From the NCBI GenBank assembly GCA_016180525.1, contig JACPBB010000001.1, positions 11,320 to 75,319 of the forward strand: a DNA stretch of 64,000 nucleotides. Reading direction: 5' to 3'. Source of the DNA: Parcubacteria group bacterium (GTDB lineage Bacteria > Patescibacteriota > Minisyncoccia > Phycocordibacterales > UBA2135). Positions within the stretch are counted from its first letter, which is position 1. The number at the start of each line of letters is the position of its first letter. Below, in pieces: positions 3,387-42,224 of the stretch. Under the pieces are notes generated by a model. It saw nothing but the letters and a program-made list of their open reading frames with translations. It did no database searches and was not told the origin of the DNA. Both the position numbers and the translations under genes were made by a program.

Positions 3387-4715
3387 TTAATTAACATTTT
3401 GAAACCACATTTCTTGATACGCAGTTGTCGTACATTTATCAGTTAGTATTGGATTTCCGACAAAATTACATAGTTCTTTCATTTCTGCCTTAGTTTGTGC
3501 TGAATGTGCTATTAAAGCGCCGATACCCTGAACACAACCGGTTTTTAAATCTGCCCCTGGCGCCGAAGTACACAGTGCCTTAGTTTGAGAAAAATCCATT
3601 TCCAGTATCTGTCTTGTAAGTGATGGCTGAAAATACGCACATCGTTCTCGGTGCTCTTTCGGAAGAGTCGCGCAGGTCCGCCATATATTATTTTTATCTA
3701 GTTGGTCTTGCTTTGCAAAAAAGGCATATTCTATAAAGACACCGTCATAGCAATATTGTCTATTGCCTACAGACAGTCCATCGCATAACAAAAGAGTATT
3801 TTTAATATTAAAATCGGTTTCAATAAGAAGCGGGTGTGCAATGCCTTGCAAGCAAGCGATAGCAGAAAAACTTAAGTTGCCAATAGTCTCTGAAAACATC
3901 TTAACGCATTCGTTTTCCACAGTAACGATATCATTTTTGTGTTCCAACAAAAACCCGGTAATAACGCCGTGTTGGCATCCATAGGTAAATTCATGAGTAC
4001 AATAGTTTAAACTCCCGATACCATATTTTTTAAAAAGAGAATTTCCGATAATATGTGCTAATGAATGGGTGTCGACAATTTGTTTCCCATTTTCAAACCC
4101 AACAAAAGTCAAATATTTTAGAGCAATGCTGGGGAATTTGTTGCTTAGCCGGATAATGTGATTTTTTTGCTCGTAAGAATAAAGGGATGCAAATTTTCCT
4201 TTGTTTAGATAAACTAAAATATCATTTATTTTTTTAGAATCAAATGGAGAACTAAACGCAAGTTTATTTTTAAAATCAACTAAACGGGTATGTCTATCTT
4301 CCTCTGCTTCTACATATACTGTTCCGACCATTTCAGGAAATAAATGATCATGATAACTCCACGCCCCTTCAAATGCATAAATAAATGACCATTGTTCGTT
4401 TGGATTGAGTCCGCGACACGCGTCAAATAAGCTTCCCAAGCAATCTCTTGGAGATGTTTGCGGGTAATTGCTGTGAGTTACGTGCTCATCTGACGCTGGC
4501 CAGTGCTTCCGTGTTCCTTTGTTTATAAAAGTAATCGTTTCTCCGGTTTGTACATATGTGTTTTGTGGTATAAATTTAGAGTCGGTTATAACAACCACGC
4601 TTGGGTGACTTTCATATTTGCTCGGAATGAGGAGCGCCATTATAATGAGGGCAATTACTGCGACGCTATATTCTATATATTTTTTCATAATATATTGTGT
4701 TATATATGATAACAA
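3387..4715 (-). CDS. secreted/membrane-anchored Cys/His-rich family protein with N-terminal Cys-less cupredoxin-like domain
   Basis: N-terminal TM helix. Cupredoxin-like block (WPASDEHVTHSNYPQ ... AWSYHDHLFPEMVGTVYV). Family motifs AHIIGNSLF and CTHEFTYGCQHGV. Many Cys. Paralog of 4697..5668 and 12342..19883. Confidence 0.55.
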   Translation of the reverse strand: MLSYITQYIMKKYIEYSVAVIALIIMALLIPSKYESHPSVVVITDSKFIPQNTYVQTGETITFINKGTRKHWPASDEHVTHSNYPQTSPRDCLGSLFDACRGLNPNEQWSFIYAFEGAWSYHDHLFPEMVGTVYVEAEEDRHTRLVDFKNKLAFSSPFDSKKINDILVYLNKGKFASLYSYEQKNHIIRLSNKFPSIALKYLTFVGFENGKQIVDTHSLAHIIGNSLFKKYGIGSLNYCTHEFTYGCQHGVITGFLLEHKNDIVTVENECVKMFSETIGNLSFSAIACLQGIAHPLLIETDFNIKNTLLLCDGLSVGNRQYCYDGVFIEYAFFAKQDQLDKNNIWRTCATLPKEHRERCAYFQPSLTRQILEMDFSQTKALCTSAPGADLKTGCVQGIGALIAHSAQTKAEMKELCNFVGNPILTDKCTTTAYQEMWFQNVN

Positions 4716-5668
4716 AATATTTTCAAAATAAAAAAAGATTTCCTATTTTACTATTGTGCTTTATATTTGTGGTCTTAATTTTTTCATATACGCAATTGTT
4801 TCATCCGTGTCTATATTTTGATGAAAATAATATAAAAACCCAAACAGAACGTTGGGGGGACTGTATTGATGTGTGGGGTGGAAAAGTGGCACATGCCTTC
4901 TTTAAACAGACAAACAAAGTGGTTCCTAATCAATACAAACATATTAACGCGCATATGTTTGGCAATGCCCTTTACAACAATTACAGCCTTGAAAAAGCCC
5001 TTCTCTTTTGCGATTACGCGTATTGGGAAGGATGTTTCCATGAGCTTTTGTCTCGAGCATTTTTAGACGGGGGATATTCCACTTTAAAAAATATTGCCGA
5101 AACATGCAAAAAAATACTCTCTAGCACTTATTCTACAACTTGTCTGCATGGTTTTGGACATGGCCTTATTGCTCTTGGGAAATATACAACTGATGACTTG
5201 CGCGAAGCTCTTGATTTTTGTTCTTTACATTTTTCTGATACAGAAGGGAAAAAAGATGCTTCAAGGCGAGGGTCAGATTATTTTGGAAACGAATGTTACC
5301 ATGGTGTATTTATGGAATATAATGAACGTAATATGTTACCGGAGTTAGGTCCCCGAGAATTAGATTTTAAAAATATATATACGCCATGTGATACATTGGA
5401 TTCTGAATACAAGGCAACGTGCTATCACAGGCTCGCTTTTAATCTGTGGCCTCACAACATATCAAACATAAATATTACTGTTAAGTATAATACACTGATA
5501 TCGTGGTGTCGTGACATTCCCCAAAAAGAATACCATTATTCTTGCGTAAGTGGAGTTCGTACTTCGATGTTTTTTGTCCCAGAAATATCCGCAAAAGAAA
5601 AAAAGAAGGTTTTAAACTTAGTAGATGAGGTCCTCCGAGAAGTACGGGCCTTTTCTGCCCCGATCTAA
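4697..5668 (+). CDS. secreted Cys/His-rich family protein (CxHGxGHG motif)
   Basis: N-terminal hydrophobic segment. Motifs CFHELL and TCLHGFGHGLIALG shared with the paralog family. Confidence 0.5.
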   Translation: MLYMITKYFQNKKRFPILLLCFIFVVLIFSYTQLFHPCLYFDENNIKTQTERWGDCIDVWGGKVAHAFFKQTNKVVPNQYKHINAHMFGNALYNNYSLEKALLFCDYAYWEGCFHELLSRAFLDGGYSTLKNIAETCKKILSSTYSTTCLHGFGHGLIALGKYTTDDLREALDFCSLHFSDTEGKKDASRRGSDYFGNECYHGVFMEYNERNMLPELGPRELDFKNIYTPCDTLDSEYKATCYHRLAFNLWPHNISNINITVKYNTLISWCRDIPQKEYHYSCVSGVRTSMFFVPEISAKEKKKVLNLVDEVLREVRAFSAPI

Positions 5669-5688
5669 CCATCTCAAAAATAAGTACT

Positions 5689-7401
5689 TTATTTAGGAAT
5701 TTGCCTTGTATAGATTATCAAATCGCTCTTTTTAATAATATCTATAATTGCTTGACGCGAATATGTATCTTGTAAATCATTTTTAAGAGATATTAACCCG
5801 TTTTTCTCCAGATTTTTTTCTTTATGAGTAATGAGAAATGGAGTGTCTGTAACAATGCTCTTATTAAAACTCAAAAAGGCTGATGATGGTGCGGCGTAGA
5901 AAAGAAACAAATCATGAAAATCAACCTTTACCCCCAATAACGCAAGTGTTGATAAAAATTTGCTATATCCGGTAACGGCAAAGATAAGCTGGTCCACGTA
6001 TGCTGTTTTTGTGCGATAGAGCGTCAACAACCGTTCAATAAACAATAATTCATTTGTATTGAAATTTGTTTTTAAATCTTTTGCTCCATACAAAAAAGAA
6101 AGGGTGTTTAAAAAAATGACGACGTCATCTTGATACACAATCGGAAAAGCTGTTATTTTTTCCTGGAGTTCAGTAATTGTTTTATTGCCCAAAAACCAAT
6201 CATGTTCGGAGAGCAGGGACCGAATTTTAAGAATTGCCATTATCTTTACAAAATCAGTGCCATAATCCGGACAAGAATAGGAAGTTGGTATTGGTTGATA
6301 CAAAAGAGGAAAGGCCGCATTCGTTTTTTCCTGAAGAGCACGCTGAAGCGGCTTTTCTGTATTTTTTGAAATATGAAAATATAGGTCATTTAAAAGAACT
6401 ATTCTCGGGCTGAATTCACTACCGTATTTCTGCGGCATGACAGTGTAATATGCGGGGGTATCTTCAAGAGCACAGGCGCTGCTCCCGAGAACAATGACCG
6501 GCATGGATTCATACCATTGTTTCTCTGTCTCATTAGATACACTGAGTATTGAGTAGTAATTACGAATTAAAGACGCGTTGCTTTTGATAATTTCAGGAAT
6601 ACTATAAAAATTTTCTTGTTCAGATACTTCTTGTGAATTTAAAAAGGGCTGAAAAGAAGCTGATGCTAAAGAACATTTTTTTATATTCCCATTAAAACAC
6701 TTCATTCTATTGTTTCTTTTTTCGTCAATATCGTATGAAGCATTAATCAGAGTATTTAAAAATGTTACATATGTTTCATTTGAAATAGTTCCTGTTGGAA
6801 GAAAAAAATTTTTCTGGTCATGCTCAGCATATATGTGTTTCATTTTTTCAGCGTTTTTGCGATATATCTTAACCGTTCTCTCCAGTAACGCATCGTATGT
6901 TTTGATGTTTTCGACTGAAGGACGTTCCACTACGTCTCTGCGTGCCTTCTCAAGGTCGGCAATTGAATATAAAAAATCAGTCGGGTATAGATTTGACCTT
7001 AAAATTTTTTCCTCTCGTGGATAATAATACCCCGCAAAATTATCAAAAGATTGTTCCATACGAGCGATAGAGTTCCTCAATGTTTCTATGTCAGTTTCCG
7101 GAATAGCAAGAAACGGCTCTACGCGGGTCAAAAGTGAGTAATATCCTGCGCGAAGCGCCACAACTTCGCGCTTAAGAGTAGGAGGCGCCTCAACAAAAAC
7201 AATGCTGCCTTCAGAAATAGTATAGTGTTTCTCGTCTATAACAATTTCAGGAAGAATAAATTGGGCAAGCTCTTTTGAAAAAAACTTTTTTTCTTTTTCC
7301 AACTGAACTGTATTTTTAAATACGCTGACATAAAAAACCAATAATATAAAAAAACTTAGAATTATCGGTATACATACTCGGCGCTTTAACTGATACTTCA
7401 T
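5689..7401 (-). CDS. hypothetical membrane-anchored protein (570 aa)
   Basis: Long ORF with N-terminal TM helix. Last gene of a 4-gene minus-strand string (8738->5689). Confidence 0.45.
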   Translation of the reverse strand: MKYQLKRRVCIPIILSFFILLVFYVSVFKNTVQLEKEKKFFSKELAQFILPEIVIDEKHYTISEGSIVFVEAPPTLKREVVALRAGYYSLLTRVEPFLAIPETDIETLRNSIARMEQSFDNFAGYYYPREEKILRSNLYPTDFLYSIADLEKARRDVVERPSVENIKTYDALLERTVKIYRKNAEKMKHIYAEHDQKNFFLPTGTISNETYVTFLNTLINASYDIDEKRNNRMKCFNGNIKKCSLASASFQPFLNSQEVSEQENFYSIPEIIKSNASLIRNYYSILSVSNETEKQWYESMPVIVLGSSACALEDTPAYYTVMPQKYGSEFSPRIVLLNDLYFHISKNTEKPLQRALQEKTNAAFPLLYQPIPTSYSCPDYGTDFVKIMAILKIRSLLSEHDWFLGNKTITELQEKITAFPIVYQDDVVIFLNTLSFLYGAKDLKTNFNTNELLFIERLLTLYRTKTAYVDQLIFAVTGYSKFLSTLALLGVKVDFHDLFLFYAAPSSAFLSFNKSIVTDTPFLITHKEKNLEKNGLISLKNDLQDTYSRQAIIDIIKKSDLIIYTRQIPK

Positions 7402-10489: not shown

Positions 10490-11056
10490 ATGAAAAGTGC
10501 TGAAAAAATGTCATTGTTCATCGGAGGATTATTTTTAATGCTCATTCCATTTTTGGCGTCTGGTCAATCCGGGTCAACAAAATTAACTGATTCAGTAACA
10601 ATTGGAGGTAGTATAAATATTACCGGCTCTATTGCAAAAGGAAGCGGTACGCTTGTCATAGATCATCCGCTTGATCCAGCGAATAAACTGCTCTATCATT
10701 CGTTCGTTGAATCTCCGGATGTTAAAAATATTTACGATGGTGTTGTGAAATTAAATAGAAACGGAGAGGCAAAAGTAAAACTACCAAAATATTTTGAAGC
10801 GCTTAATAAAGATTACCGGTATCTTGTGACCCCAATTGGAAAACCATCTCCCAATCTTTACATTAAACAAGGTGTTGAAAATAATATGTTTATTATTGCT
10901 GGAGGGGAAGCGGGAATAAAAGTCTCCTGGCAAGTAACGGGTATCCGCCGTGACCCACATATTATTGCAAACCCAATTATTCCTGAAATTGAGAAGGGGA
11001 CCAGTGCGTTAGTAGATAAAGGAGTTTATATATTACCTGAAATATATGGAAACTAG
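10490..11056 (+). CDS. small secreted protein, tandem family member 1
   Basis: Signal peptide MSLFIGGLFLMLIPFLASG. Shares a near-identical block GSG(T/S)(L/F)VIDHPLDPANKLLYHSFVESPDVKNIY with the two downstream copies. Confidence 0.55.
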   Translation: MKSAEKMSLFIGGLFLMLIPFLASGQSGSTKLTDSVTIGGSINITGSIAKGSGTLVIDHPLDPANKLLYHSFVESPDVKNIYDGVVKLNRNGEAKVKLPKYFEALNKDYRYLVTPIGKPSPNLYIKQGVENNMFIIAGGEAGIKVSWQVTGIRRDPHIIANPIIPEIEKGTSALVDKGVYILPEIYGN

Positions 11057-11534
11057 ACAAACACCTGTTGTTATAATTATCACATCCGGAATTATGGGGG
11101 CAATTTTTCTTTTCCCGTATATTGCGTCGGCAATCTCTCGTATTAATGAAAGTGTTACGGTGCGAGGAAACGTGGTTGTTACCGGCGCGCTTGCAAAAGG
11201 TTCCGGCTCATTCGTCATAGACCATCCACTTGATCCTGCTAATAAATTACTCTATCATTCGTTCGTTGAATCTCCGGATGTTAAAAATATTTATTTTAGA
11301 TATCAATTCTCCTCTCTTGAAAAACCTTCTCCTAATCTTTATATAAAACAAGAAATACGAAATAATAGATTTGTAATCTCCGGAGGTGAACCAAAAATTA
11401 GAGTATCGTGGCAAGTAACAGGCGTGAGACATGACCCGTATATTCTTAAAAATCCGATTATACCAGAGGTAGAAAAAGGGTCTAATGAGTTGGTAAATAA
11501 GGGAGAATATGTATTTCCTGAATTATATGACTAA
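11046..11534 (+). CDS. small secreted protein, tandem family member 2 (internal ~25-aa deletion relative to member 1)
   Basis: Same conserved block. The middle segment DGVVKLNRNGEAKVKLPKYFEALNKD is absent. Confidence 0.5.
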   Translation: METRQTPVVIIITSGIMGAIFLFPYIASAISRINESVTVRGNVVVTGALAKGSGSFVIDHPLDPANKLLYHSFVESPDVKNIYFRYQFSSLEKPSPNLYIKQEIRNNRFVISGGEPKIRVSWQVTGVRHDPYILKNPIIPEVEKGSNELVNKGEYVFPELYD

Positions 11535-12265
11535 AACAACATTTAAAAAAAAGAATAACACTAACAAACTATTTTTTCTCTTTTTGATAGGTTTTTTGTT
11601 TTATTTTCAATTACCATCTATAGCAAAAGCTGCTTATAGTCAGGGTTATTACTATGCTCAAGGTTACTACTATGGCGAGGGTTATTACTATGCAGAAGGC
11701 TATTACTATGCTCAAGGAACATATAGAACAACTTTTACTACTAATACCACATTTACCCAAAATTTAACGATTACCGGAGAATTAAAAAAAGGTTCCGGCT
11801 CATTCGTCATAGACCATCCACTTGATCCTGCTAATAAATTACTCTATCATTCGTTCGTTGAATCTCCGGATGTTAAAAATATTTAGAGTTGTAACGCTTG
11901 ATGAAAAAGGTGAAGCAGTAGTCGAGCTTCCTGCGTATTTTGAAGCACTCAATAAAGATTTTAGATATCAGGTTAAGCCAATAAATAAATCGTCTCCTAG
12001 TTTGTATATAAAAAGCGAAATAAAGGATAATCAATTTATGATTGCCGGAGGTGAACCAAAAATTAGAGTATCATGGCAAGTAACAGGCGTGAGACATGAC
12101 CCGTATATTCGCGCAAACCCAATTATTCCCGAGACAAGAAAGGGGCGAAATGAAATAGTAAACAGGGGAGAGTATTTGTTTCCCGAGCTGGCAGGAAAAT
12201 ATATTGAAACCCAAATATCTTTATGGGAAAAAATGGTATTCTTCTTTAACTCTCTTTTCAAGTAA
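11509..12265 (+). pseudogene. tandem family member 3, interrupted by an apparent 1-nt deletion (ORFs 11509..11886 and 11822..12265)
   Basis: Copy 1 reads NIYDGVVKLNRNGEA. Copy 3 reads NI* in frame, then continues as RVVTLDEKGEAVVELPAYFEALNKDFRYQVKP in the +1 frame. The N-terminal part carries a Tyr-rich (GYYYA)x4 repeat. Confidence 0.45.
11641..11720 (+). repeat. 15-nt tandem repeat encoding (GYYYA)x4-5 within tandem-family copy 3
   Basis: cagggttattactatgctcaaggttactactatggcgagggttattactatgcagaaggctattactatgctcaagga translates to QGYYYAQGYYYGEGYYYAEGYYYAQG. Confidence 0.7.
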
Positions 12266-12289: not shown

Positions 12290-12322
12290 ACAGTATATTG
12301 TATATGCAATATACTGTTTTTT
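12290..12322 (+). terminator. intrinsic terminator after the tandem secreted-protein genes
   Basis: Perfect palindrome acagtatattg-tatatg-caatatactgt followed by tttttt. Confidence 0.65.
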
Positions 12323-12341
12323 GTGTCATGCATATCTAAAT

Positions 12342-13367
12342 ATGAAATTGTTACCATATCAAAATATATTATTTATAGCTGTAATTATCATAGGAGGTGT
12401 TTTGCTCCATAAAAATCTGTCGTCGGAATCATTTTTAGGATTTTCTCTAAAAAAAGAACAAAAATATTGGTCTGAACACATGAGCACTAAAAACGCCGAA
12501 CAGATTTCTGAAATATTCCAAAAGAAATATAAGAAGCTCAATCCCGCTGAACAACATGCCGCAGCCCACATCGTTGGCGAAGCTATTTATAAAAAACAAA
12601 GTTATTCGGGAATTGTGTTTTGTGATTACGTAATTGGAGACGCTGGATGCGTTCATGAGTTGATGACGTTGGCAATTTTAGAAAATGGACTTAATATAAT
12701 ACCATCAATAAATAAAGAATGCTTGAATTTGCCAAGCAACAAAAGAACAGCCTCGTGCCAACACGGCGTGGGCCATGGAATATTGTTTTATTTGGGATAC
12801 GATTATAAAAGTTTACTCAAAGGGCTTGAACAATGTTCCCTAATTACCGCTCCATATCTTAGAGAGAGTGTCCGCTACGTGGAAGGATGCGTTGGGGGTG
12901 TGCTTATGGAATATAATTCAAACCCGTCATTAAATAAAAGCCAAAAACCAAGAGTTTTTGCGCTAGATTCCGTATACGTTCCGTGTACTTCTCTGGGAGA
13001 AGAGATGCGCTCAGTTTGTTATTTTTGGCAAACTCAGTGGTGGAATGCAAATTTAAAAGATTATAATACTATAGGAAAATATAAAAAAATGGGAGAACTA
13101 TGCACTGTTATAGTTAATGCGAATGAAAAAACATGGTGTTTCCGTGGAATCGCGCATGCAATGATCCCAGACACTAAGTGGATAGTAAAAAAAGCATTAC
13201 ATTTTTGCAATTCCATAACATTAGACGCGGGAAGACAGGAATGCCAGGCATACGCCGCTTTTCTTTTTAAAGATGAGGGGTTAGAATCCGTATGTAATTT
13301 TGTAAATGATGAAGAAAAAAAAGAGTGTGTTGAAATATCGTCTTCTCTTCTTGCAAGCGAGAGTTAA
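12342..13367 (+). CDS. secreted Cys/His-rich family protein
   Basis: Signal/TM MKLLPYQNILFIAVIIIGGVLL. Motifs AAAHIVGEAIY, GCVHEL, SCQHGVGHGILFYLG. ~18 Cys in repeated C-x(8-12)-C units. Confidence 0.55.
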   Translation: MKLLPYQNILFIAVIIIGGVLLHKNLSSESFLGFSLKKEQKYWSEHMSTKNAEQISEIFQKKYKKLNPAEQHAAAHIVGEAIYKKQSYSGIVFCDYVIGDAGCVHELMTLAILENGLNIIPSINKECLNLPSNKRTASCQHGVGHGILFYLGYDYKSLLKGLEQCSLITAPYLRESVRYVEGCVGGVLMEYNSNPSLNKSQKPRVFALDSVYVPCTSLGEEMRSVCYFWQTQWWNANLKDYNTIGKYKKMGELCTVIVNANEKTWCFRGIAHAMIPDTKWIVKKALHFCNSITLDAGRQECQAYAAFLFKDEGLESVCNFVNDEEKKECVEISSSLLASES

Positions 13368-13373
13368 ATTATC

Positions 13374-14444
13374 ATGAAATTTCAATCTGAAAAAAACATA
13401 ATAATTTTTCTTGTGATTATTTCCGGAATCTTTTTTTTATATAACAAAAATATTCCGGAGTTTTTTGTAGGTACACCTCTAGGCCCTCAGCTCTCAAATA
13501 TTGGCAATAGTCGTGAAGATCTTCAAATTAAAAGGGATCATTGGAAAAGCCGTATAAACGAAATTGGTCCAGAGAGCGCCTACTCTGAATTCTTACAAAC
13601 ATACAACCATATGAATTTTGAGAAACAGCATACTTTTGCGCATATCATGGGTGAGCTTCTTTATGAAAAAGTAGGAGTTAATGGTTTAGCAATATGCGAT
13701 AAGTCATTCGCGTTTGGCTGTTTCCACGGTTTTTTTACGGGAGCAATTAGCAAAGAGGGAATTGGAGTTATAGCTAAGCTCGACAATGCCTGTCTTAAAA
13801 AATTTGGACCATATGGAACAGGGTGTCAACACGGTATTGGGCACGGTATTTTAGAGCACGTAGGACCGGATTCACTGGTTAAAGGGCTTGAGGCATGTAG
13901 ATTCACTACTCAGATAGAATCATCGCATTTTGGTTGCACCTCCGGTGTTTTTATGGAATATAATACACAAACTATTTTTACTAGAGATAATGTCTATCAA
14001 AAAGTGAGAGACTTAAAAGAACAAAACCCTTTTGAGCCCTGTAATACACTAGTACCAAGCAAATTTAAAAACTCTTGTTATTTTGAAATAAGCGCATGGT
14101 GGATGCAGGTATTTAACAAAGATCATATAAAAGTAGGCCAACTCTGCCAAATGATACAAGGGGAAGAATATAGAAAGTCGTGTTATTTGGGATTTGGTAC
14201 GGTAAGCGCACATCTTGCTCAATATAATGTTTCAGATGCAATAAAAATATGTAAAGAAACGTCAGGCGGAAACATAGAAGCTGAATTATTATGCCGAGCA
14301 AGCGCTTCATGGTCTTTTTGGGCGATGCCGGGGCATAAACAAGAGTCTCTTGCCCTGTGTGATAATTTTGAAGATGAAGAAGTTGAATTTCGTTGTGTGA
14401 GCGAATCTGACCTTATCGGAACAGGAGAAAAATTCAATAAATAA
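13374..14444 (+). CDS. secreted Cys/His-rich family protein
   Basis: N-terminal TM. Motifs FAHIMGELLY, GCFHGFFTG, GCQHGIGHGILEHVG. Confidence 0.55.
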   Translation: MKFQSEKNIIIFLVIISGIFFLYNKNIPEFFVGTPLGPQLSNIGNSREDLQIKRDHWKSRINEIGPESAYSEFLQTYNHMNFEKQHTFAHIMGELLYEKVGVNGLAICDKSFAFGCFHGFFTGAISKEGIGVIAKLDNACLKKFGPYGTGCQHGIGHGILEHVGPDSLVKGLEACRFTTQIESSHFGCTSGVFMEYNTQTIFTRDNVYQKVRDLKEQNPFEPCNTLVPSKFKNSCYFEISAWWMQVFNKDHIKVGQLCQMIQGEEYRKSCYLGFGTVSAHLAQYNVSDAIKICKETSGGNIEAELLCRASASWSFWAMPGHKQESLALCDNFEDEEVEFRCVSESDLIGTGEKFNK

Positions 14445-14456
14445 TTTTGTATATCA

Positions 14457-15932
14457 ATGGGAAAAAAAACTTTACGCATATTAATTATAGTAATTTTTTT
14501 AATTGTATTGTCGGGAATATACTATACTCTTTTTGAGACCCAAAAAAATAAAAATCATATCATTGAGCTTCGTGAAACCGGTTTTTATCCAAAAACAATT
14601 ACGATAATTCAAGATGATGCTGTCTTGTTTAGAACAAAACTTAATGAAACATTCTGGCCGGCAAGCGATCCGCATCCAATTCATAATTATTACCCTGAAG
14701 AAAATTTTGACCCCCAAAGAGCCCTTGGGCCCGATGAAGAATGGCAGTTTACATTTACACAAGCCGGCACGTGGAGATATCATGACCATTTAAATCCATC
14801 TTTACGGGGAGAAATTACAGTACTTCCAAATAAAAGCTATACTGCGTATTTACCGTGTAAAAAAGAAACCGGACAATGTTTTGACGAACTTATACGAAAA
14901 ACAGTTTCTGAAAAAGGAATAGCCGCTGCGTACGCGCTTTTTACCGAAACATACGCAAAAGGAGAGTTACCGCGTGCATGCCACTGGACAGCGCACCAGA
15001 TAGGGGAAGAAGCGTATGAGTTATTTAAGGGCGGGGAAACATTTCCCATAACAGGCGAGACATCATATTGCGGATATGGATTTTTTCACGGTTTTCTTGA
15101 GAGCTTGTTGCGGGAAAATCCCGATGTTAAATTTGCTCTTTCTTTTTGCGATGAGGCTGAAAGGCAATTGGGTATATTAGGACTTCAGAACTGCTATCAT
15201 GGCATAGGGCATGGATTTACCGAAGACCCTCCGGATCCATCCGTATGGGGCAATTTTGAAGGAATGGTAGCACCTGGCATAGAGATATGCGAATATTTAT
15301 TTAAAAATTCATTTACAAACCTTAATTTATGCCTTACGGGCGTATTTACCGTCCCTGTCGGATTTGCGGAAAAGAAAGAGTATGGGTTGTCGCTAAGCCC
15401 CAGTGACCCATTTGCCATATGCAGAGAGCAGCCATACAAATACCAAAAAGCCTGCTATGGAGAAATTACACCAAAACTGGACTCTATTTTAGAAGGTGAT
15501 TTTTCTCAATTTCCAAAACACCTTGCCGGTATTACTGATGAAAAAATAAGAAATTTAATTATTTGGGTTGCTCCATCTGTCATGGTCGCGCGTGAGATTC
15601 TTAAAGACGATTATGGTGGGTTTATAGAAGTGTGCAGAAACAACTTTGTCGGTATTGAAAGAGAAATTTGCTGGGGCGGAATAATACTCGGATTTTTTAC
15701 GCATGGAGAGCCTGAAAAACAATATAAAAAAGGAATTTCATTCTGTAAATCACAGCTGTTTAATGCTTCGGAAAAAAAATTCTGCTATAAACAATTATTT
15801 CACAGAATGCACGCTGAATACACAGAGGATAAAATAAAAAATATTTGCACTAATGAAGTTTCGGAAACATATCGCTCTTCATGCTTATCAAAAAATCAAC
15901 AATCCATATACAAAGACCCTGTTTTTGAATAA
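14457..15932 (+). CDS. secreted Cys/His-rich family protein with N-terminal Cys-less cupredoxin-like domain
   Basis: N-terminal TM. Cupredoxin-like block (TITIIQDDAVLFRTKLNETFWPASDPHPIHNYYPE ... AGTWRYHDHLNPSLRGEITV). Motifs CHWTAHQIGEEAY, YCGYGFFHGF, NCYHGIGHGF. Confidence 0.55.
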   Translation: MGKKTLRILIIVIFLIVLSGIYYTLFETQKNKNHIIELRETGFYPKTITIIQDDAVLFRTKLNETFWPASDPHPIHNYYPEENFDPQRALGPDEEWQFTFTQAGTWRYHDHLNPSLRGEITVLPNKSYTAYLPCKKETGQCFDELIRKTVSEKGIAAAYALFTETYAKGELPRACHWTAHQIGEEAYELFKGGETFPITGETSYCGYGFFHGFLESLLRENPDVKFALSFCDEAERQLGILGLQNCYHGIGHGFTEDPPDPSVWGNFEGMVAPGIEICEYLFKNSFTNLNLCLTGVFTVPVGFAEKKEYGLSLSPSDPFAICREQPYKYQKACYGEITPKLDSILEGDFSQFPKHLAGITDEKIRNLIIWVAPSVMVAREILKDDYGGFIEVCRNNFVGIEREICWGGIILGFFTHGEPEKQYKKGISFCKSQLFNASEKKFCYKQLFHRMHAEYTEDKIKNICTNEVSETYRSSCLSKNQQSIYKDPVFE

Positions 15933-15933
15933 C

Positions 15934-17409
15934 ATGCAAAAATTTAAAATAAAAAAATATCTTTTCGGACTTTTCATTATCATTCCGATTGTCGGACTAA
16001 GCGGGTATCACGCATATCAAAAATCAACCCCTGCAAATGTTATATTCTCAGAAATTGGAACATACGGAGCAACATTAACGGAGCAAGGTTTTATGCCAAA
16101 AGAAATTACTATTCCAATTGGCTCAACTATCGTTTTTTCCACAACACTAGATAAATTTTTCTGGCCAGCATCAAATTTTCATCCATCTCATGCAATATAT
16201 CCTGAATTTGACGCTAAAAATCCAGTTCCATCCGGAGAAAGTTGGAAATTTCAATTTAAAGAAGCTGGAACATGGGAATATCATGACCATCTATCTCCTT
16301 ACTTTGGAGGAACGATAAGAGTAACGGATGAAATAAATACAACATTAAAAGAAAACCTATGTGAAAATAACAAAAAACAATCAGCATGCTGGCGGTCCCT
16401 TTTATTTTCTCAATTAAAAAATAATGGTATTGACACAACATTTTCTATCCTTGAGAGCCTGTACAAAACAGAGTTAGGATTTAGAGAAACGTGCCATGGA
16501 ATTACCCACGATCTTGGGATTGAGTCATACCAGTATTTTTTAAAAAACAAAGATTTAATTTTAACTACAAAATCATCGGCATGCGCGTATGGATTTTATC
16601 ATGGATTTATGGAGGCGCTTCTTACTCATACGGGTGACATACAACAAGCGCGTGAATTTTGTCTTTTTATTGATAAAAAAATAACCCCAGATATACCAGA
16701 TGCGACACTGCAGTGTTTCCATGGCATTGGACACGGAATTATTGACATGCAGGTCACTTTCAACGGTCGTCAACAGGACAAAGAAATGCTTATAAAAGAT
16801 GCGTTGTCATTTTGTGAAAGCGCTTCTCGGACAGACGAGGAGCTCTATCGATGTGCTTCTGGGATATACAATAGCGTTGCAAACATATACATACTTGAAA
16901 AAAACTGGTCCTTAAAACAAGATGAGATTATCTCTCTTTGTACGCATCAGCCAGAAAAATACAAAGAGAGTTGTTACGGGAATATGAACTCTCTTATGTT
17001 TCGCGCCGCGGATAACAATTTAGGAAAATCACTCATTTTTATAAACGAAATAGAGGAACAATATAGAGAATCTGCTGTCCGCTATCTTTCAAATTTAAGC
17101 GTTATATATACAATTCTGCAGGATAAAGATTACGACGAGGAGGTGGGGGCATGCCGTTCTTTGCCGGACATTCTTTATACAGCATGCCTTGAAGGTCTTG
17201 TACACGGGCTTCTAGAGCATGGACAGCCCAGAGAGGAATATAAAAAAGTAATTGATTTCTGCGAGGCTCCAATCCTTACCATGTCCGAAACGGAGAAATG
17301 CTTTGAATATGGACTTTCAAATCTTGGAGGCTGGTATTTAAAAGAAAAATCGCAAGAAATTTGTAATGAAATACCCGAAACGTATAAACAATATTGTAAG
17401 CAAGTTTAA
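15934..17409 (+). CDS. secreted Cys/His-rich family protein with N-terminal Cys-less cupredoxin-like domain
   Basis: Start moved to the ATG at 15934 (MQKFKIKKYLFGLFIIIPIV TM segment), which removes an 80-nt overlap. Cupredoxin-like block (FWPASNFHPSHAIYPEF ... AGTWEYHDHLSPYFGGTIRV). Motifs CHGITHDLGIESY, CAYGFYHGF, QCFHGIGHGII. Confidence 0.55.
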   Translation: MQKFKIKKYLFGLFIIIPIVGLSGYHAYQKSTPANVIFSEIGTYGATLTEQGFMPKEITIPIGSTIVFSTTLDKFFWPASNFHPSHAIYPEFDAKNPVPSGESWKFQFKEAGTWEYHDHLSPYFGGTIRVTDEINTTLKENLCENNKKQSACWRSLLFSQLKNNGIDTTFSILESLYKTELGFRETCHGITHDLGIESYQYFLKNKDLILTTKSSACAYGFYHGFMEALLTHTGDIQQAREFCLFIDKKITPDIPDATLQCFHGIGHGIIDMQVTFNGRQQDKEMLIKDALSFCESASRTDEELYRCASGIYNSVANIYILEKNWSLKQDEIISLCTHQPEKYKESCYGNMNSLMFRAADNNLGKSLIFINEIEEQYRESAVRYLSNLSVIYTILQDKDYDEEVGACRSLPDILYTACLEGLVHGLLEHGQPREEYKKVIDFCEAPILTMSETEKCFEYGLSNLGGWYLKEKSQEICNEIPETYKQYCKQV

Positions 17410-17414
17410 TTTTT

Positions 17415-18593
17415 ATGGAATCAATATATAAAAAAAATGTTCTGTTGCCTTTTCTCTTTTTGTTCGTGGTAGCGATGATTATTTTTTACATTAAACCAAA
17501 CTCTTCACTTGCACATCACGCAGCATCTATTTTGCAAATATGCGCAACAGAAGAATATAAACCAGCTTGCTACGATAGAGAAATACCCAAATTGATGGAC
17601 ACCGAGCTTTCAATGGAAAATGCGTTTGCTGTTACGAAACTGATTCAACAAAAAGATGATTCATATTTTTACTGCCATGTATTGGGACACAACTTGAGCG
17701 CGAAAGAAACTGCCAAAGACCCTTCAAGGTGGAAAGAAGTTATTGCTCGCACTCCAAGCGGTATGTGTTCAAACGGAGGCATCCATGGTGCTTTTCAGGA
17801 AAGGTTTAGAGCTGAAGCACTGCCAGAGGCAAGTGTTGCTGAATTAGAGCCCATTCTTACTGATATTTGCAATAAACGAGAAAACTGGAACCCGACACGA
17901 CTGGAACAGGCAACGTGCACGCACGCCGTGGGACATCTAGTGATGTACGTTACAGGCGGGGATATTCATAAATCTCTGGCACTCTGTGAAAAAGTCGCAT
18001 TTAACGAAGAGGGGTATGATTTTAAACAAATTTGTTTTGACGGAGCGTTTATGCAAATATTCCAGCCGCTTGAGCCGGAAGATTACGTACTCATAAAAGG
18101 GAGGGAACAGACACGAGAGACCGTTAATTCATTTTGTGAAAAATTTACGGGAGCACGCTATGGATCATGTCGTTCGGAAAGCTGGCCACTTTTTCACGAA
18201 GAAATAAAAACAGCTCCAGGTCTTACTCGTTTTTGCTCTTTTCAAAAAGATTTTGAACAAAAAGAGCGCTGTTATTCAGGAATGTTTTACGTATTAACGG
18301 CAGAATTTAATTTAGACCCCATTAAAATTGAAAATCTTTGCGAAGCATTTCCTCAAGAGTTGAAAAATAAATGTTTTGCAAATGCCGCATCTCGGATGAT
18401 TGAAACTGATTGGAGCAAAATTCCTGACGCAATTTCTTTGTGCGCTATTTCAGAAAAACACGGAGCAGGAGATGCGTGCTATAGAGAATTATTGCTATAT
18501 TCTAACTATAATTTTCACCCAAGATCTAAAGAATTCTATTCGCTATGTCGGCATTTACCTAATGGGTGGGAAGGAAAGTGTCTTTCAGGGTAA
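17415..18593 (+). CDS. secreted Cys/His-rich family protein
   Basis: N-terminal TM. Motifs YCHVLGHNLS, CSNGGIHGAF, TCTHAVGHLVMY. Confidence 0.5.
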   Translation: MESIYKKNVLLPFLFLFVVAMIIFYIKPNSSLAHHAASILQICATEEYKPACYDREIPKLMDTELSMENAFAVTKLIQQKDDSYFYCHVLGHNLSAKETAKDPSRWKEVIARTPSGMCSNGGIHGAFQERFRAEALPEASVAELEPILTDICNKRENWNPTRLEQATCTHAVGHLVMYVTGGDIHKSLALCEKVAFNEEGYDFKQICFDGAFMQIFQPLEPEDYVLIKGREQTRETVNSFCEKFTGARYGSCRSESWPLFHEEIKTAPGLTRFCSFQKDFEQKERCYSGMFYVLTAEFNLDPIKIENLCEAFPQELKNKCFANAASRMIETDWSKIPDAISLCAISEKHGAGDACYRELLLYSNYNFHPRSKEFYSLCRHLPNGWEGKCLSG

Positions 18594-19883
18594 TTGTGTT
18601 AATTTTCCGCACTCATTTCGTATATCTTTAGGAAATTGTTTACAAATCTTTCCAATATCTTCTGGTTCAAAAAGTATGGGGATTTTTTTTATAACCTCTC
18701 CATAACAAAAATTACGAAGCCCTTTTTCTTCTAAGGTTGGATTAGAGCAAAAAACAATTGGGTGTTTGTAAGTTTTTCCTGGTATACCAAACTCGTATAA
18801 TGCGTGCACAATTCCTTTAACGCACCCCTCGTATACTTCCTGTTCAAAAAACTCACACTGCGCAAGAATTCTTTGATATTGGCTTTCTTTCTCGTGTTCT
18901 AGATATATTACATTGTTTAAAACATTATAAAGCATGACTTTTTTAAATTGCCAGTCACCTTCAATTGATTGAATTTTATTAATTACGGGAAAAGTATTTT
19001 TATCGGACAATGTATACATTGTATAAAGTGAGTGAGCCATAATTTTATTGCAAGTAGCATATGCGTTGATTTTTAATCCTTCGCATATTGAAAACGGGTC
19101 TTCTGCGCTCAAGGAAATATCATAACCATTTTTATTACCGTGACCATCAGAATCTTCTTGTATAAAGCGAAGCATCGCTCCGAGTACGCCGGTTTTGCAA
19201 GCTTCTTTTTCATCTTCATTCGCAAGCAAGAGTGCTTCACATTGTTCCACTGGTTTTTCAACGAATACATTTAAATTGCCCCATTTACTTCTTGGTGTTT
19301 GTTCAATGTTTGAATACAAAAGCCCGTGTCCGGCACCAAGGTAACAAATATTACCGATGGATCTGATTTTATTGTTGTAGCGTGTTTTTACGTTTTCACA
19401 TATTTCTGTTACAAATTTTGAACTTGCGTTATCTTGTACTAGGTGACCTACAACAGCATGAGAAAAACCGTAGCCGCACGCTAACATTGATGGTGAAAAA
19501 TCAATAAGAGATATATCCTTTGTATTAAGATAAAGATTATAATATGTGAAATCACCTAAAGAATGCATTAACCGATGGCATCCGTCTTCATAAAAAATCG
19601 CTTTTTTAAAAAAATCTGACACATATGCAGCGCTTACTATGCGCAAGCCAGCACGAGGACCGTCACGCAGTGTTTCATTTTCCATAATTGTATACAGACA
19701 ATCAATTTTTTTATCGTTATCTTTAATAATCTTGCAATTATTAAGTAAGGCGACTGCCCTTATGTCAGATAGCATGTCTGTTTTAAATATTAAAAAAGCT
19801 ACAGCAAGCAATAAAACTATTACAAAAAATGCAAAAGGTGCATTCATCACTTTTTCGGCATAAAGTCTATTAATTATGTTCAT
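18585..19883 (-). CDS. secreted Cys/His-rich family protein (convergent, 9-nt overlap with upstream paralog)
   Basis: N-terminal TM. Motifs CHRLMHSLGDFTY, ACGYGFSHAVVGHL, ICYLGAGHGLLYS. Confidence 0.5.
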   Translation of the reverse strand: MNIINRLYAEKVMNAPFAFFVIVLLLAVAFLIFKTDMLSDIRAVALLNNCKIIKDNDKKIDCLYTIMENETLRDGPRAGLRIVSAAYVSDFFKKAIFYEDGCHRLMHSLGDFTYYNLYLNTKDISLIDFSPSMLACGYGFSHAVVGHLVQDNASSKFVTEICENVKTRYNNKIRSIGNICYLGAGHGLLYSNIEQTPRSKWGNLNVFVEKPVEQCEALLLANEDEKEACKTGVLGAMLRFIQEDSDGHGNKNGYDISLSAEDPFSICEGLKINAYATCNKIMAHSLYTMYTLSDKNTFPVINKIQSIEGDWQFKKVMLYNVLNNVIYLEHEKESQYQRILAQCEFFEQEVYEGCVKGIVHALYEFGIPGKTYKHPIVFCSNPTLEEKGLRNFCYGEVIKKIPILFEPEDIGKICKQFPKDIRNECGKLTQLP

Positions 19884-39648: not shown

Positions 39649-39717
39649 ACGTAGTTTGCTCTCCTCAAGAGTATTTCTCAACTAAAGAGGAGAAAAGAAC
39701 ATTGCCTTGTCGGACCG

Positions 39718-41418
39718 TTAGGCGTGGGCGTGGACCGTTGCGGCCTTCTTCGCCTTGGCCTTGCCCTTCTTGGCCTTCGGCTTGGGCGCGTCGGCGACCG
39801 CTTCGGTGGGAACTTCCTCGGGCTTCGAGGGAGTCTCCGGCGTGGCGGTCTTCTCGGCGGAGCGCCTGGCGATCTTGCCGAGCTCCCGAACGATCTTCTT
39901 GAACTCGTTCGGGTCCGTGAGAAGCGCCTTGTGCTTCTCCGGATACTCGACGGCCGTGATATCGCCGCCAGCTTCCGCGCGCGAGGCGAGGAAGTGGACC
40001 TGGAAGTGCTTCTTGCCCTTGCTGTCCCTCCAGGGGAACTTGATGAAGGAGTAGGACATGCCGGCCTTCGCGGGTTCGCCGAAGAAGTCCCCGAAGGAAA
40101 CGTTGGCCTTGCTGTTGTAGTTGTCCTTCTCCGTCTTGTACGCTTCATGTGCGTCTTCCTGCTTCTGGGCGCACTTGAACGCCCAGGAAAGCCGGCGGTA
40201 CAAGTCCTTCAAATTGCCGAACTCGTGCTGGTTGGGCACGAAGTAAGGCAACTCGAGATAGAACTTGTCCAGATCCTGGAGGGACTCCAGGGGAATCGCC
40301 CACGGGGCGATGCGGTGGCCGCGGTCGGAAACCGGCGAAGCGAGCGACGTCAAGGCCTCGGAGAGGGTCTGATAGACGACCTTTTCATAGCCTTCGCCGT
40401 CGTTCGGATACTCCATCGCCTTGCCGTCGACGACCTGAGGACCTTCGCGGGTAGGCGGTACAAGCGAGACGAAGATGCCCGTGTAGGGAACCTTGTTCCC
40501 GTCCTTGTCCTTCGACATGCGCGTGTCTTCAAACGCGCAGAGAAGGGCGCCGCCTTCGTGGGTCACGAATCGGACTTTCTTGTCCTGTGTGCCCCCCTTT
40601 TGCCGCGGGAACCAAACGTAGCAGGTTGCCGCTGGCACTTGCCGTGGCTTGCCGTCCTTGTCTCGACGTATGACGGTGGTCGTGAGATCTTTCTTGGTCA
40701 CCGAGCGGAACTCGGAGACCCACTTGACCGTCGCCTGGTTGCGAAACGCTGCGGACCCATCCTTGGTGTCGGCGCGGGAGACGAAGTATGCCCCGCGCGC
40801 CTTCTCCGAGAGGAGCATGAGAATGTTGAGGTCATAGACCTCGTTCTCGTACTCCTTGGTCGCGCCGATCCACGTGCCGTTGACCAAGGCGCCGATCGGG
40901 AGCTTCTCCTTGGAGGCGAAGATGATGTTTCGCTCCAAGCCGAACTGATTCATCCGTTCCGCCACGCTCGCAAGAGCACCATCCGGAACGATTTGGCCGA
41001 GCATCGCGGCGAGAAAATGAACTCCCGCCGTATGCATGAACCGGTCCTTCTGATCCCCAACGAAATTCTTGGCGTCGGGGAAAACGTCGACGTCGGCGTC
41101 ACAGAAGCGCTCGGCGGTCTTGACCATCTCCTCGGCGGAATGTCCCGCCTGAAGAAGCGCTGCCGCCTTCGTGGCGTACAGCGCGACGAATTCGGGAACC
41201 TGCGTCATGAGGGTGTTGAAAGCGCCCTCGTTTGCCGCTTGTTCCTCGGGCGTGGACTGGATCGTTGGCAGCGTGAAGCCGCCTGTCTTGGTGGTCTGCA
41301 TGGCTTTCGCCTCCTTGTGGTTGCCGTTTGGTTTTGACTCGTCAGGACGCCGAGTCACCTTGATGCCCTTTGCCTCCAGCGCTTGCTGGGTTTGGGGGTT
41401 GATGATCTCACCAGTCAT
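39718..41418 (-). CDS. hypothetical protein (566 aa) with C-terminal Lys/Ala/Pro-rich histone-H1-like tail; GC-rich, foreign composition
   Basis: ~60% GC, AAG/GCC codons. C-terminus PKPKAKKGKAKAKKAATVHAHA. Own -10-like TATAAT upstream and a hairpin + T-tract terminator downstream (39604..39648). Confidence 0.55.
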   Translation of the reverse strand: MTGEIINPQTQQALEAKGIKVTRRPDESKPNGNHKEAKAMQTTKTGGFTLPTIQSTPEEQAANEGAFNTLMTQVPEFVALYATKAAALLQAGHSAEEMVKTAERFCDADVDVFPDAKNFVGDQKDRFMHTAGVHFLAAMLGQIVPDGALASVAERMNQFGLERNIIFASKEKLPIGALVNGTWIGATKEYENEVYDLNILMLLSEKARGAYFVSRADTKDGSAAFRNQATVKWVSEFRSVTKKDLTTTVIRRDKDGKPRQVPAATCYVWFPRQKGGTQDKKVRFVTHEGGALLCAFEDTRMSKDKDGNKVPYTGIFVSLVPPTREGPQVVDGKAMEYPNDGEGYEKVVYQTLSEALTSLASPVSDRGHRIAPWAIPLESLQDLDKFYLELPYFVPNQHEFGNLKDLYRRLSWAFKCAQKQEDAHEAYKTEKDNYNSKANVSFGDFFGEPAKAGMSYSFIKFPWRDSKGKKHFQVHFLASRAEAGGDITAVEYPEKHKALLTDPNEFKKIVRELGKIARRSAEKTATPETPSKPEEVPTEAVADAPKPKAKKGKAKAKKAATVHAHA

Positions 41419-41509
41419 GGTGATTTCCTTTCTTTCTGTCTGTAGTTGTCAAGGTCTTAAAGGGTTTTTCCGTACAAAAAACGTACACCCTCTTCGTACT
41501 AATTGTTAT

Positions 41510-41563
41510 TATAGCAAAAAAGAAAGGCCCTGTCAAGTACCTTTCTAGGTTCCTGACAGGGCC
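41510..41563 (-). terminator. hairpin + T-tract after the 211-aa cassette gene, also containing a -10-like element for the 566-aa gene
   Basis: Minus-strand reading: ggccctgtcaggaacctagaaaggtacttgacagggcc tttctttttt gctataataacaa. Confidence 0.5.
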
Positions 41564-41588
41564 GCAAAAAACTCTTTACCTGTGAGCT

Positions 41589-42224
41589 TTAATCATCCCA
41601 CCGTCGCCGGGGATCAGCTTCCAACTTAGACATGTGCTCGGGAAGAAAAGACAGGCTTCCGACTTCACGAACGGAGACAACGATATCTCCGTCCTCATCT
41701 TTTGCTTCAATGAACATTGCGCGATGCTCGTCACCCAACTGTATTTTCACAAAAACAGGATTGAAAATGCCATCTTTGCCAGGATAGGCAAGGGGCTGAA
41801 GCGTTTCTGTCGCCCATCCTTTCTTACTTGTCCTTACCATATCGTGCATTGAGAAGCCGAACGGAAATCGCTCTGTTGCTCCTTTTCGTCCGCAGATCAT
41901 GAAGTGACGCGGGTTCTTCCGCTGTAACAACAGCCAATGAAGCGGCTGTGCGAGAGCGCGGCGTGCCCCTGGAAAAGTGATATTCGTTTCCTCTCCGCTG
42001 AACACACGCCCCGGTATGTATGAATATGCAGGAAGCGCGACGTGCACAACCGGCTTACCCTTGTTGCTTCCATGCACTACTAAGTTTGTTTTGAGTGCTT
42101 CAAGTTCCTTGGTCCAATCTGAAAGTTCTGAAGAGAGCGGAAGGTCAAAATTAAGTTGAAAAGCGATTCTCAAAAACGGTGCATCCACCCCAATGGGGTA
42201 GAATTTCCGAGTTTCATTCGTCAT
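41589..42224 (-). CDS. hypothetical protein (211 aa), middle gene of the GC-rich cassette
   Basis: ORF with ~50% GC. Start overlaps the stop of the upstream nuclease gene (ATGA). Followed by a hairpin terminator at 41510..41563. Confidence 0.45.
   Translation of the reverse strand: MTNETRKFYPIGVDAPFLRIAFQLNFDLPLSSELSDWTKELEALKTNLVVHGSNKGKPVVHVALPAYSYIPGRVFSGEETNITFPGARRALAQPLHWLLLQRKNPRHFMICGRKGATERFPFGFSMHDMVRTSKKGWATETLQPLAYPGKDGIFNPVFVKIQLGDEHRAMFIEAKDEDGDIVVSVREVGSLSFLPEHMSKLEADPRRRWDD

Follow-up and report, generated by a model that had tools for sequence, protein, structure and literature searches.

The window analysed here is a 64,000-nt stretch of the Parcubacteria group bacterium assembly GCA_016180525.1 (contig JACPBB010000001.1, positions 11,320-75,319, forward strand). 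It carries three genes in which an N-terminal domain (N-domain) of about 95 amino acids (aa) is fused to an all-alpha Cys/His-rich C-terminal domain (C-domain). All three N-domains have the fold of true cupredoxins and descend from type-1 (T1) copper proteins resembling amicyanin/plastocyanin. They belong to a family whose invariant residues are four His: two in an HPxH motif of an inserted loop and two in an HxH motif around the position of the former Cys ligand. As read from the alignments described below, the T1 site was dismantled rather than remodelled in place. We hold with moderate confidence that the four His form a new metal site, most probably of type-2-like Cu(II), in which the Asp or Asn now found at the Cys position would be a second-sphere or structural residue.

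The three open reading frames (ORFs) and their N-terminal motifs were found in place and translated as described in an earlier annotation made from the DNA letters alone (the initial annotation). The span that it gave for the feature, 14530-16330, reaches from copy 1's N-domain to that of copy 2 and takes in the entire C-domain of copy 1. The true start of copy 2 is the ATG at 15934, 1 nt past the copy 1 stop. The copy 1 protein is identical to NCBI HYT93_00140 (Parcubacteria group bacterium), encoded on a 344-kb contig. The N-domains share 33-46% pairwise identity, with 26 invariant columns. Of the sequence pattern proposed for them, WPAS[DN]xH[PV]xH and YHDHL hold in all three copies; the first motif reads F-x-P-x-[TE]-I-T rather than F-P-x, copy 3 deviates in two places (FIPQNTYV and W-S-F-I-Y-A-F-E-G-A-W) and copy 1 lacks the Gly of x-x-G-x-x-[IV].

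The fold was assigned using AlphaFold2 (AF2) models and profile comparisons. The AF2 model of copy 1 residues 30-128 contains eight strands and has a predicted local distance difference test score (pLDDT) of 91.4. Foldseek searches with the N-domain model returned amicyanin, plastocyanin, pseudoazurin and the NirK cupredoxin domain with a probability of 1.0 and template modelling scores (TM-scores) of 0.70-0.77. A family profile built from 108 relatives matched amicyanin in the PDB (E=1.4e-11), with plastocyanin and a NirK's extra cupredoxin domain among the further matches. The Pfam models matched by the 108 relatives were Cupredoxin_1 (107), Copper-bind (79) and Cu-oxidase_3 (18). The cupredoxin fold suggested in the initial annotation is therefore upheld by the models and Foldseek, by the family profile against amicyanin and by Pfam.

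Scores of the individual sequences were low. The window copies reached 16.6, 12.7 and 14.9 bits (E=0.008-0.13) against Cupredoxin_1 (PF13473), the gathering cut-off of which is 27 bits. Among the relatives, the 107 matches to this model are those at E<=1 (best 8.8e-12), and some pass the cut-off (for example P0232, 67.5 bits); judged by these scores, the family sits at the margin of the PF13473 model. The window copies gave no match to PF00127 and 12 bits with the amicyanin model, and stand-alone relatives scored 18-33 bits where the cut-offs are 88-110; neither thus reaches the curated cut-offs of PF00127, TIGR02656 or TIGR02657. The description that suits the family best is that of a cupredoxin-fold variant with amicyanin-like ancestry and a His4(Asp/Asn) signature.

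Ligand positions were assigned by alignment to proteins with a canonical T1 site. HMMER aligned the family consensus GtWsYHDHLnpsltG without gaps to amicyanin GTYDYHCTPHPFMRG, and hhalign gave the same register with a probability of 97.9%; the amicyanin query used for hhalign agrees with the sequence in the PDB alignment of the profile. In this register Asp corresponds to Cys92, the flanking His to His91 and Thr93, Asn to the ligand His95 and Leu to the ligand Met98. Two further checks do not involve this query. When canonical cupredoxin repeats of multi-repeat proteins were placed on the family profile, positions 37, 81, 84 and 87 were occupied by H, C, H and M, and nothing aligned at 42-47. 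A nanoarchaeal cluster (L078) encodes a canonical T1 paralog, which aligns with a four-His member at 31% identity (E=3e-16), pairing YHCSIHPGMRG with YHDHLNPNLHG without gaps and NNDVMQHTVTSD with NKDTETHWPASA. Three independent alignments thus place Asp at the T1 Cys-ligand position, as had been proposed, and they mark the SDxHPxH segment as a family-specific insertion, a loop that is missing from canonical cupredoxins. The implied placing of the His and Asp of YHDH at ligand positions holds for Asp; the flanking His do not align with T1 ligand positions.

The other T1 positions are poorly kept. In copy 1 they are occupied by Phe66 (N-terminal His position, just upstream of WPASDPHPIH), Asn113 (loop His) and Leu116 (Met), with Asp110 at the Cys position. 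Copies 1, 2 and 3 read F/F/H, D, N/S/F and L/F/M at the N-terminal His, Cys, loop His and Met positions, copy 3 keeping both the N-terminal His and the Met. A set of 288 domains, chosen for carrying all four His, was examined in the same way. Position 81 (T1 Cys) is Asp in 255, Asn in 32 (11%), His in one and Cys in none; of the other T1 ligands, the N-terminal His is kept in 20%, the Met in 8% and the loop His in 2%. Each of the four His, that is the flanking pair and the HPxH pair singled out in the initial annotation, is conserved in 107-108 sequences of the 108-sequence alignment.

The absence of Cys was confirmed in a metagenome scan with a Cys-substituted query, using the pattern WPAS[DN]xHP[TS]H, which is neutral as to position 81. 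The 76 motif-bearing matches comprised 72 with Asp, four with Asn and none with Cys. No Cys-retaining intermediate was found among the repeat proteins, the metagenome scan or the 288 domains. Because Cys is missing from the family members, the domain is unable to act as a blue-copper electron carrier. The picture of a remodelled T1 site, put forward in the initial annotation, is probably wrong, since the loop His, Met and N-terminal His positions are not kept.

The likely orientation of the four His was derived from the alignment. Residues i-1 and i+1 of a beta-strand face opposite to residue i. In strand 7 of the 108-sequence alignment, Trp at position 77 and Tyr at 79 are conserved and belong to the core, and polar residues that vary occupy 76 and 78; the residue at the Cys position would therefore face the core and the old copper pocket, and the flanking His the outer face. 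The same geometry is seen in the HCH motif of multicopper oxidases and the His-Cys pair of NirK, whose His bind non-blue coppers. In plastocyanin the acidic patch surrounding the residue before Cys is made up by the stretch that follows strand 4. HPxH, which lies directly after strand 4, would therefore be expected beside the HxH pair. Because the flanking His are predicted to point away from the residue at the Cys position, a separate His cluster appears more likely than an arrangement in which His and Asp, as suggested in the initial annotation, make up a site within the old pocket, and the occurrence of Asn in 11% of relatives makes Asp unlikely as an obligatory ligand.

Asp stands precisely at the Cys position and is found in 89% of relatives, which would suit a single mononuclear site rebuilt in or beside the old T1 pocket with Asp as a true ligand. 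Such a site would be similar to the type-2 or 'type-zero' copper of engineered azurin C112D or to the Asp/His Cu(II) site proposed for FtrB, in which D118 is required for Cu(II) binding (PMC11966278). DSSP analysis of the models places His111 in the turn past the strand, where its orientation is less constrained. In addition, Asp is present in every one of the 57 relatives with His at the N-terminal T1 position, where about six Asn would be expected by chance; Asp and the N-terminal His could still cooperate in the old pocket in a subset, and the pattern may reflect functional coupling there or merely shared ancestry. A His/Asp site is nonetheless considered unlikely. The strand residues on either side of Asp would face away from it, as judged from the in/out conservation, the loop-His and Met positions are gone, and in window copies 1 and 2 Phe stands in place of the N-terminal T1 His. 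Furthermore, Asn takes the place of Asp in 32 of the 288 domains, whereas the four His, for which these domains were chosen, do not vary.

The preferred reading, a new four-His site, has the following parts. The blue-copper site has been lost by replacement of Cys by Asp/Asn and of the loop His by Asn/Ser/Phe, with the Met and N-terminal His positions variable. What defines the family now is the four His, HPxH coming from the inserted loop after strand 4 and HxH lying at the former Cys. The resulting His4 constellation would be a solvent-facing or interface-facing site of nitrogen ligands, on the face that bears the non-blue coppers in NirK and multicopper oxidases, and Asp/Asn, in what was the T1 pocket, would have a second-sphere or structural role. 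A single transmembrane helix anchors the proteins outside the monoderm-type (wall-less-periplasm) cell of bacteria in the candidate phyla radiation (CPR), where the N-domain would act as a copper-handling or redox module partnered with the disulfide-rich all-alpha domain and its own His5-Glu constellation.

Several points weigh against this reading, besides the 57 relatives that have both the N-terminal T1 His and Asp. We infer both the clustering of the four His and their distance from Asp, and in both models confidence is lowest for the loop bearing HPxH (pLDDT blocks 75-87). HMMER and hhalign differ on which residue matches the N-terminal T1 His (His73 or Phe66); the canonical-paralog alignments favour Phe66. 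P1B ATPase genes were seen in only 2 of about 85 loci, most neighbourhoods consisting of housekeeping genes, and fusions of a T1 with a four-His domain are rare, a search with one of them (P0273) having given no second example. Finally, Zn, Ni and Fe are likewise bound by such His-rich sites. The four-His domain may plausibly bind metal as such. The coordinates of the fused genes, their motifs and the related genes of the window are collected in Table 1.

Table 1. Coordinates of the three fused genes, their parts and the unfused C-domain paralogs in the window.
Feature	Position	Strand	Details
Fused gene, copy 1	14457..15932	+	491 aa; transmembrane helix, four-His cupredoxin domain, all-alpha Cys/His domain
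Transmembrane anchor of copy 1, residues 3-26	14463..14534	+	AF2 helix 3-26 and hydrophobic sequence
Cupredoxin-fold N-domain of copy 1, residues 33-123	14553..14825	+	AF2, Foldseek, profile against amicyanin
WPASDPHPIH of copy 1, residues 67-76	14655..14684	+	His73/His76, the invariant HPxH pair
YHDHL of copy 1, residues 108-112	14778..14792	+	Asp110 aligned with the T1 Cys, between His109 and His111
All-alpha Cys/His-rich C-domain of copy 1, residues 140-477	14874..15887	+	AF2 model, alignment
Fused gene, copy 2	15934..17409	+	491 aa; N-domain 16066-16326; WPASNFHPSH 16162-16191; YHDHL 16279-16293
Fused gene, copy 3	3387..4688	-	433 aa from Met 4688; N-domain 4308-4601
Motifs of copy 3	4473-4502; 4341-4355	-	WPASDEHVTH, preceded by H (HWPASDEHVTH); YHDHL
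C-domain paralog without cupredoxin domain	12321-13367	+	
C-domain paralog without cupredoxin domain	13374-14444	+	
C-domain paralog without cupredoxin domain	17415-18593	+	392 aa; downstream of fused genes in Kaiserbacteria (L006) too
More divergent C-domain paralog	4697-5668	+	323 aa; hidden Markov model E=1.3e-34
More divergent C-domain paralog	18585-19883	-	432 aa; hidden Markov model E=1.4e-24

Copy 3 contains a two-Cys loop insertion after HPxH (4380-4440, residues 83-91), which is also present in P0003 and P0034; besides copy 3, about 30 of 267 relatives have a C-x6-14-C-[RK]-G insertion at this place. The two Cys probably staple the loop by a disulfide beside the His cluster.

The family is large. 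A word-index-free search of 1.84 billion cluster representatives (50% identity) gave at least 3,174 representatives at E<=1e-30, essentially all of them apparently from CPR bacteria or DPANN archaea. The motifs are not a chance pattern: they recur in 111 proteins from the profile search and in 53 fused homologs, and were found in 366 stretches of 185,579 species genomes (one genome per species) and in more than 600 metagenome stretches. The locus analysis was carried out on the best 79 of the 366 genome stretches, which are titled mostly as metagenome-assembled genomes of Patescibacteria/CPR or DPANN; some bear other or generic automatic titles ('uncultured Gammaproteobacteria', 'Actinomycetes'), taken as given. 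Most members are stand-alone proteins of about 120-180 aa with a transmembrane anchor, as confirmed on long contigs.

No NCBIfam model covers the four-His family and the literature search found no paper describing it. Database labels are 'plastocyanin' (JGI, many) and 'cupredoxin domain-containing protein' (NCBI). Canonical T1 cupredoxins occur in CPR as well. Metabolic reconstructions of CPR have used annotated cupredoxins/plastocyanins as electron donors for NirK (PMC5581439, PMC12931201); since true T1 cupredoxins are also present, each annotated case needs a check of the ligand positions. The representative search was topped by proteins of 700-1,170 aa with 7-11 tandem canonical cupredoxin repeats of the form H...C-x-x-H-x-x-M (P0235, P0237, P0259 and others), because the scores of the repeats add up.

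Gene neighbourhoods and fusions were examined for partners of the four-His domain. Neighbour enrichment over the 79 genome loci revealed no dominant partner; the recurring neighbours were an Ig-like protein of about 175 aa (6-7 loci), a DsbA-like protein (3) and a P1B ATPase (1). The more informative arrangements are few. In a nanoarchaeal same-strand cluster (L078; 1202-1675 and 2546-3013) a four-His cupredoxin and a canonical amicyanin-like T1 gene are separated by two small membrane protein genes. Four-His and canonical T1 cupredoxin domains are fused in both orders (P0273, P0277), and the search with P0273 found none beyond these two. P0387 has a four-His domain fused to a TlpA/Redoxin-like domain (79.8 bits). 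A Woesearchaeota locus has a CPC-type P1B ATPase 2 kb from the four-His gene. These uncommon fusions and operons, together with the Aenigmatarchaeota operon and the Ig-like neighbour described below, hint at copper or redox chemistry, as does a CHRD-like domain that is fused to four-His domains and is paired with a T1 cupredoxin instead in P0473.

A tightly packed operon of an Aenigmatarchaeota genome (L008, 2277-7784) contains, in this order, a four-His gene, a small membrane protein gene and a DUF411/CopG-like gene (CGCC), and then genes for membrane proteins, for a P1B ATPase of the CPH type and for a peroxiredoxin. The Ig-like neighbour of about 175 aa (L007 2844-3338(-), L012, L022, L028, L034, L055, L066) has a C-terminal transmembrane anchor and a signal peptide that ends directly before His, so that the mature protein is predicted to begin with His, like histidine-brace copper proteins; its Pfam matches are weak and limited to YtkA-like and DUF6727. 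A paper on DPANN archaea (PMC10936187) mentions a nosZ-like gene that has, upstream of it, the gene of a short cupredoxin-like protein in which five His are conserved. Identity of this protein with the four-His family is a lead only; the CuA motif (CxExCxxxH) was not found in any of the 79 loci.

The same neighbourhoods bear on whether the metal is copper. The four-His cluster might instead bind Zn, Ni, Fe or Mn with no redox role; it would then be a structural site, would scavenge metal or hand it over to the C-domain, or would be a hydrolytic centre. An HxH pair with further His is a pattern of zinc sites as well, for example in carbonic anhydrase, and copper genes are missing from most neighbourhoods. 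On a 618-kb CPR contig (L001, region 5356-6504) a stand-alone four-His gene starts 28 nt past a gene for Fe/Mn superoxide dismutase, with a flavin mononucleotide (FMN) reductase gene upstream, and in L033 a permease assigned by eye as ZIP-like adjoins an ATPase; a motif scan of the 79 genome loci showed no other superoxide dismutase neighbour. We judge a non-copper site rather improbable, given the copper-specific ancestry of the fold, the canonical T1 paralog in the same cluster in L078, and the copper or redox nature of those partners that are informative (CopG/CopB, T1 cupredoxin, TlpA-like redoxin).

Some relatives carry fn3, Ig-like and peptidoglycan-binding domains in the same protein, in keeping with a location at the cell surface. 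As these domains are typical of surface proteins, and as metal-less cupredoxin folds such as the early-nodulin-like phytocyanins exist, the domain might also be a degenerate cupredoxin that binds no metal and serves as a structural, adhesion or protein-protein surface module, the conserved His being used for contacts, pH sensing or metal-free catalysis. This is the case to which we give very little credence: invariance of the HxH/HxxH His across the clusters counted above is a stronger constraint than a scaffold requires, and the stand-alone forms of about 130 aa have nothing else to scaffold.

The C-domain, of about 340 aa, was analysed separately. In an alignment of 126 sequences His176, His180, His211, His248 and His252 are invariant, Glu336 is conserved in 96% and 15 Cys are each conserved in at least 96%, in agreement with the fused second Cys/His domain noted initially. 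The full-length AF2 model of copy 1 (pLDDT 93.7, predicted TM-score 0.87) has His176 and His180 on one helix, His211 on a second and His248 and His252 on a third. By alignment and model, the domain is compatible with an extracellular disulfide-stabilised metal centre. It matched no Pfam or NCBIfam family, a profile of 64 sequences brought up no sequence relative in the PDB either, and Foldseek with the full-length model gave no match to the helical domain beyond the architecture-level one to EfeO.

Eight paralogs of the C-domain are encoded in the window, three with a cupredoxin domain and five without; the latter consist of a helix and the Cys/His-rich domain only. All eight lie within 17 kb, and up to nine are clustered in other CPR genomes. 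Of the 120 best C-domain matches 53 are fused to a four-His domain, a fusion that is common in Parcubacteria-type lineages, and the fused-gene arrangement is syntenic in Kaiserbacteria. Double N-C-N-C proteins occur, and in Taylorbacteria and two further loci an unfused C-domain paralog is the neighbour of a stand-alone four-His gene. The three window N-domains have different nearest relatives. Independent fusion events were considered and are not inferable from this difference, because many 'stand-alone' matches are on contigs shorter than 1 kb and are possibly truncated.

The two-domain architecture and the T1 partners leave room for a more elaborate arrangement, which we regard as doubtful, to much the same degree as a non-copper site. 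The four-His domain might be the type-2-like catalytic half of a minimal copper oxidoreductase, or, in the proteins of the window, His4 might instead face the His5-Glu of the C-domain and form an inter-domain multi-copper centre with it. In the former case, the T1-to-type-2 wiring of NirK or laccase may have been divided among small modules, the electron source being a canonical T1 cupredoxin, whether from a neighbouring gene or within a fusion (L078, P0273, P0277). Superoxide, oxygen or metal oxidoreductase would be possible activities of an inter-domain centre. If this were true, ultra-small episymbiotic bacteria and archaea would have an extracellular copper enzyme of a new class that is specific to them.

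Other features of the window are listed for completeness. The GC content is 0.32-0.45 over most of the length. It rises to 0.56 at 39700-42000, a segment with a 566-aa ORF (39718-41418, -) and a long antisense ORF, which may be foreign or mobile DNA. Tandem small secreted ORFs at 10490-12265 share a module GSGSFVIDHPLDPANKLLYHSFVESPDVKNIY, one of them with YYY[AG][QE]G repeats; the ORFs 11046-11534, 11509-11886 and 11822-12265 overlap in the manner of frameshifted copies. The GSGSFVIDHPLDPANKLLYHSFVESPDVKNIY module also occurs in the syntenic Kaiserbacteria locus L010. No RNA family of Rfam was found in the window.

The four-His family is conserved, uncharacterised and routinely mislabelled. 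If the proposed site is correct, it would be a natural and very large family with an all-nitrogen His4 constellation on a cupredoxin scaffold, and would bear on the origin of type-2 and trinuclear sites from single-domain ancestors. Together with the C-domain family it is part of the poorly understood surface proteome of host-attached CPR/DPANN organisms.

Among known systems, amicyanin and plastocyanin (PF00127, TIGR02657/TIGR02656) have the same Greek-key beta-sandwich. In amicyanin the C-terminal ligand loop is equally long (C-x2-H-x2-M, compared with D-x2-N-x2-L in the four-His family), and both share the small membrane-anchored or secreted format that is common to many four-His relatives. 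The family differs in lacking Cys, in having four new His, two of which are in an inserted loop, and in scoring far below the curated cut-offs (for example 31 versus 110 bits).

Domain 1 of ascorbate oxidase provides a likeness to the HxH motif. Its GTFFYHGHL is aligned with the family motif G-T-[WF]-x-Y-H-x-H-L (probability 85%); the ascorbate oxidase query was cross-checked only by the residue range 82-124 of 1aoz in the PDB profile match. The family HDH corresponds to H104-G-H106, with a residue other than Cys between two His in both, and His104 and His106 of ascorbate oxidase are type-3 copper ligands. The PDB matches 1aoz, 4jhu, 2zwn and 4kns of the family profile cover the region of the HxH motif. 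In NirK the His preceding Cys links the T1 and type-2 sites, and the rare fusions and clusters of the family with T1 cupredoxins recall the T1-to-type-2 wiring of NirK and multicopper oxidases. Unlike multicopper oxidases, the family has one HxH: HWH is reduced to [H/F/M]-W-P, with His in 20% at position 37 and Pro as the next-but-one residue, and the HPxH loop takes its place. The four-His domain, in contrast to these enzymes, is single.

EfeO (Cup-I and M75, PDB 7WGU) is built on the same logic: a cupredoxin-like domain outside the cytoplasm comes first, and a helical domain with metal ligands comes second. It was the top Foldseek match of the full-length model, yet only the cupredoxin part superposes (TM-score 0.16-0.22, root-mean-square deviation 23 A), and the C-domain of the window proteins has neither the M75/HxxE signature nor an M75 match in Pfam. 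The EfeO-N relationship raised in the initial annotation was not detected in sequence (hhalign against the E. coli EfeO N-domain, probability 7%).

FtrB, the 'Cup-II' protein of the FtrABCD iron transporter (PDB 8VUK), is a Cys-less cupredoxin; it is extracytoplasmic, has a proposed ferroxidase role, and carries D-x2-H near the C-terminus and a Glu triad for iron (PMC11966278). It is the closest precedent for a natural Cys-less copper cupredoxin that contains Asp. The four-His family differs in reading H-D-H-L-N, with His at +3 in 2%, and in having the four His as its invariants. The FtrB structure was outside the 60 best PDB profile matches (all E<=0.15), and no pairwise alignment with FtrB was made; the window and the 79 loci contained no Ftr genes, and no Ftr/Efe permease was seen nearby.

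The engineered azurins C112D and C112D/M121L, which reportedly hold 'type-2' and 'type-zero' copper, have the same replacement of Cys by Asp, and copies 1 and 2 of the window have Leu and Phe at the Met position. Both equatorial His are kept in these azurin variants, whereas the window copies have Phe/Asn, Phe/Ser and His/Phe at the corresponding positions.

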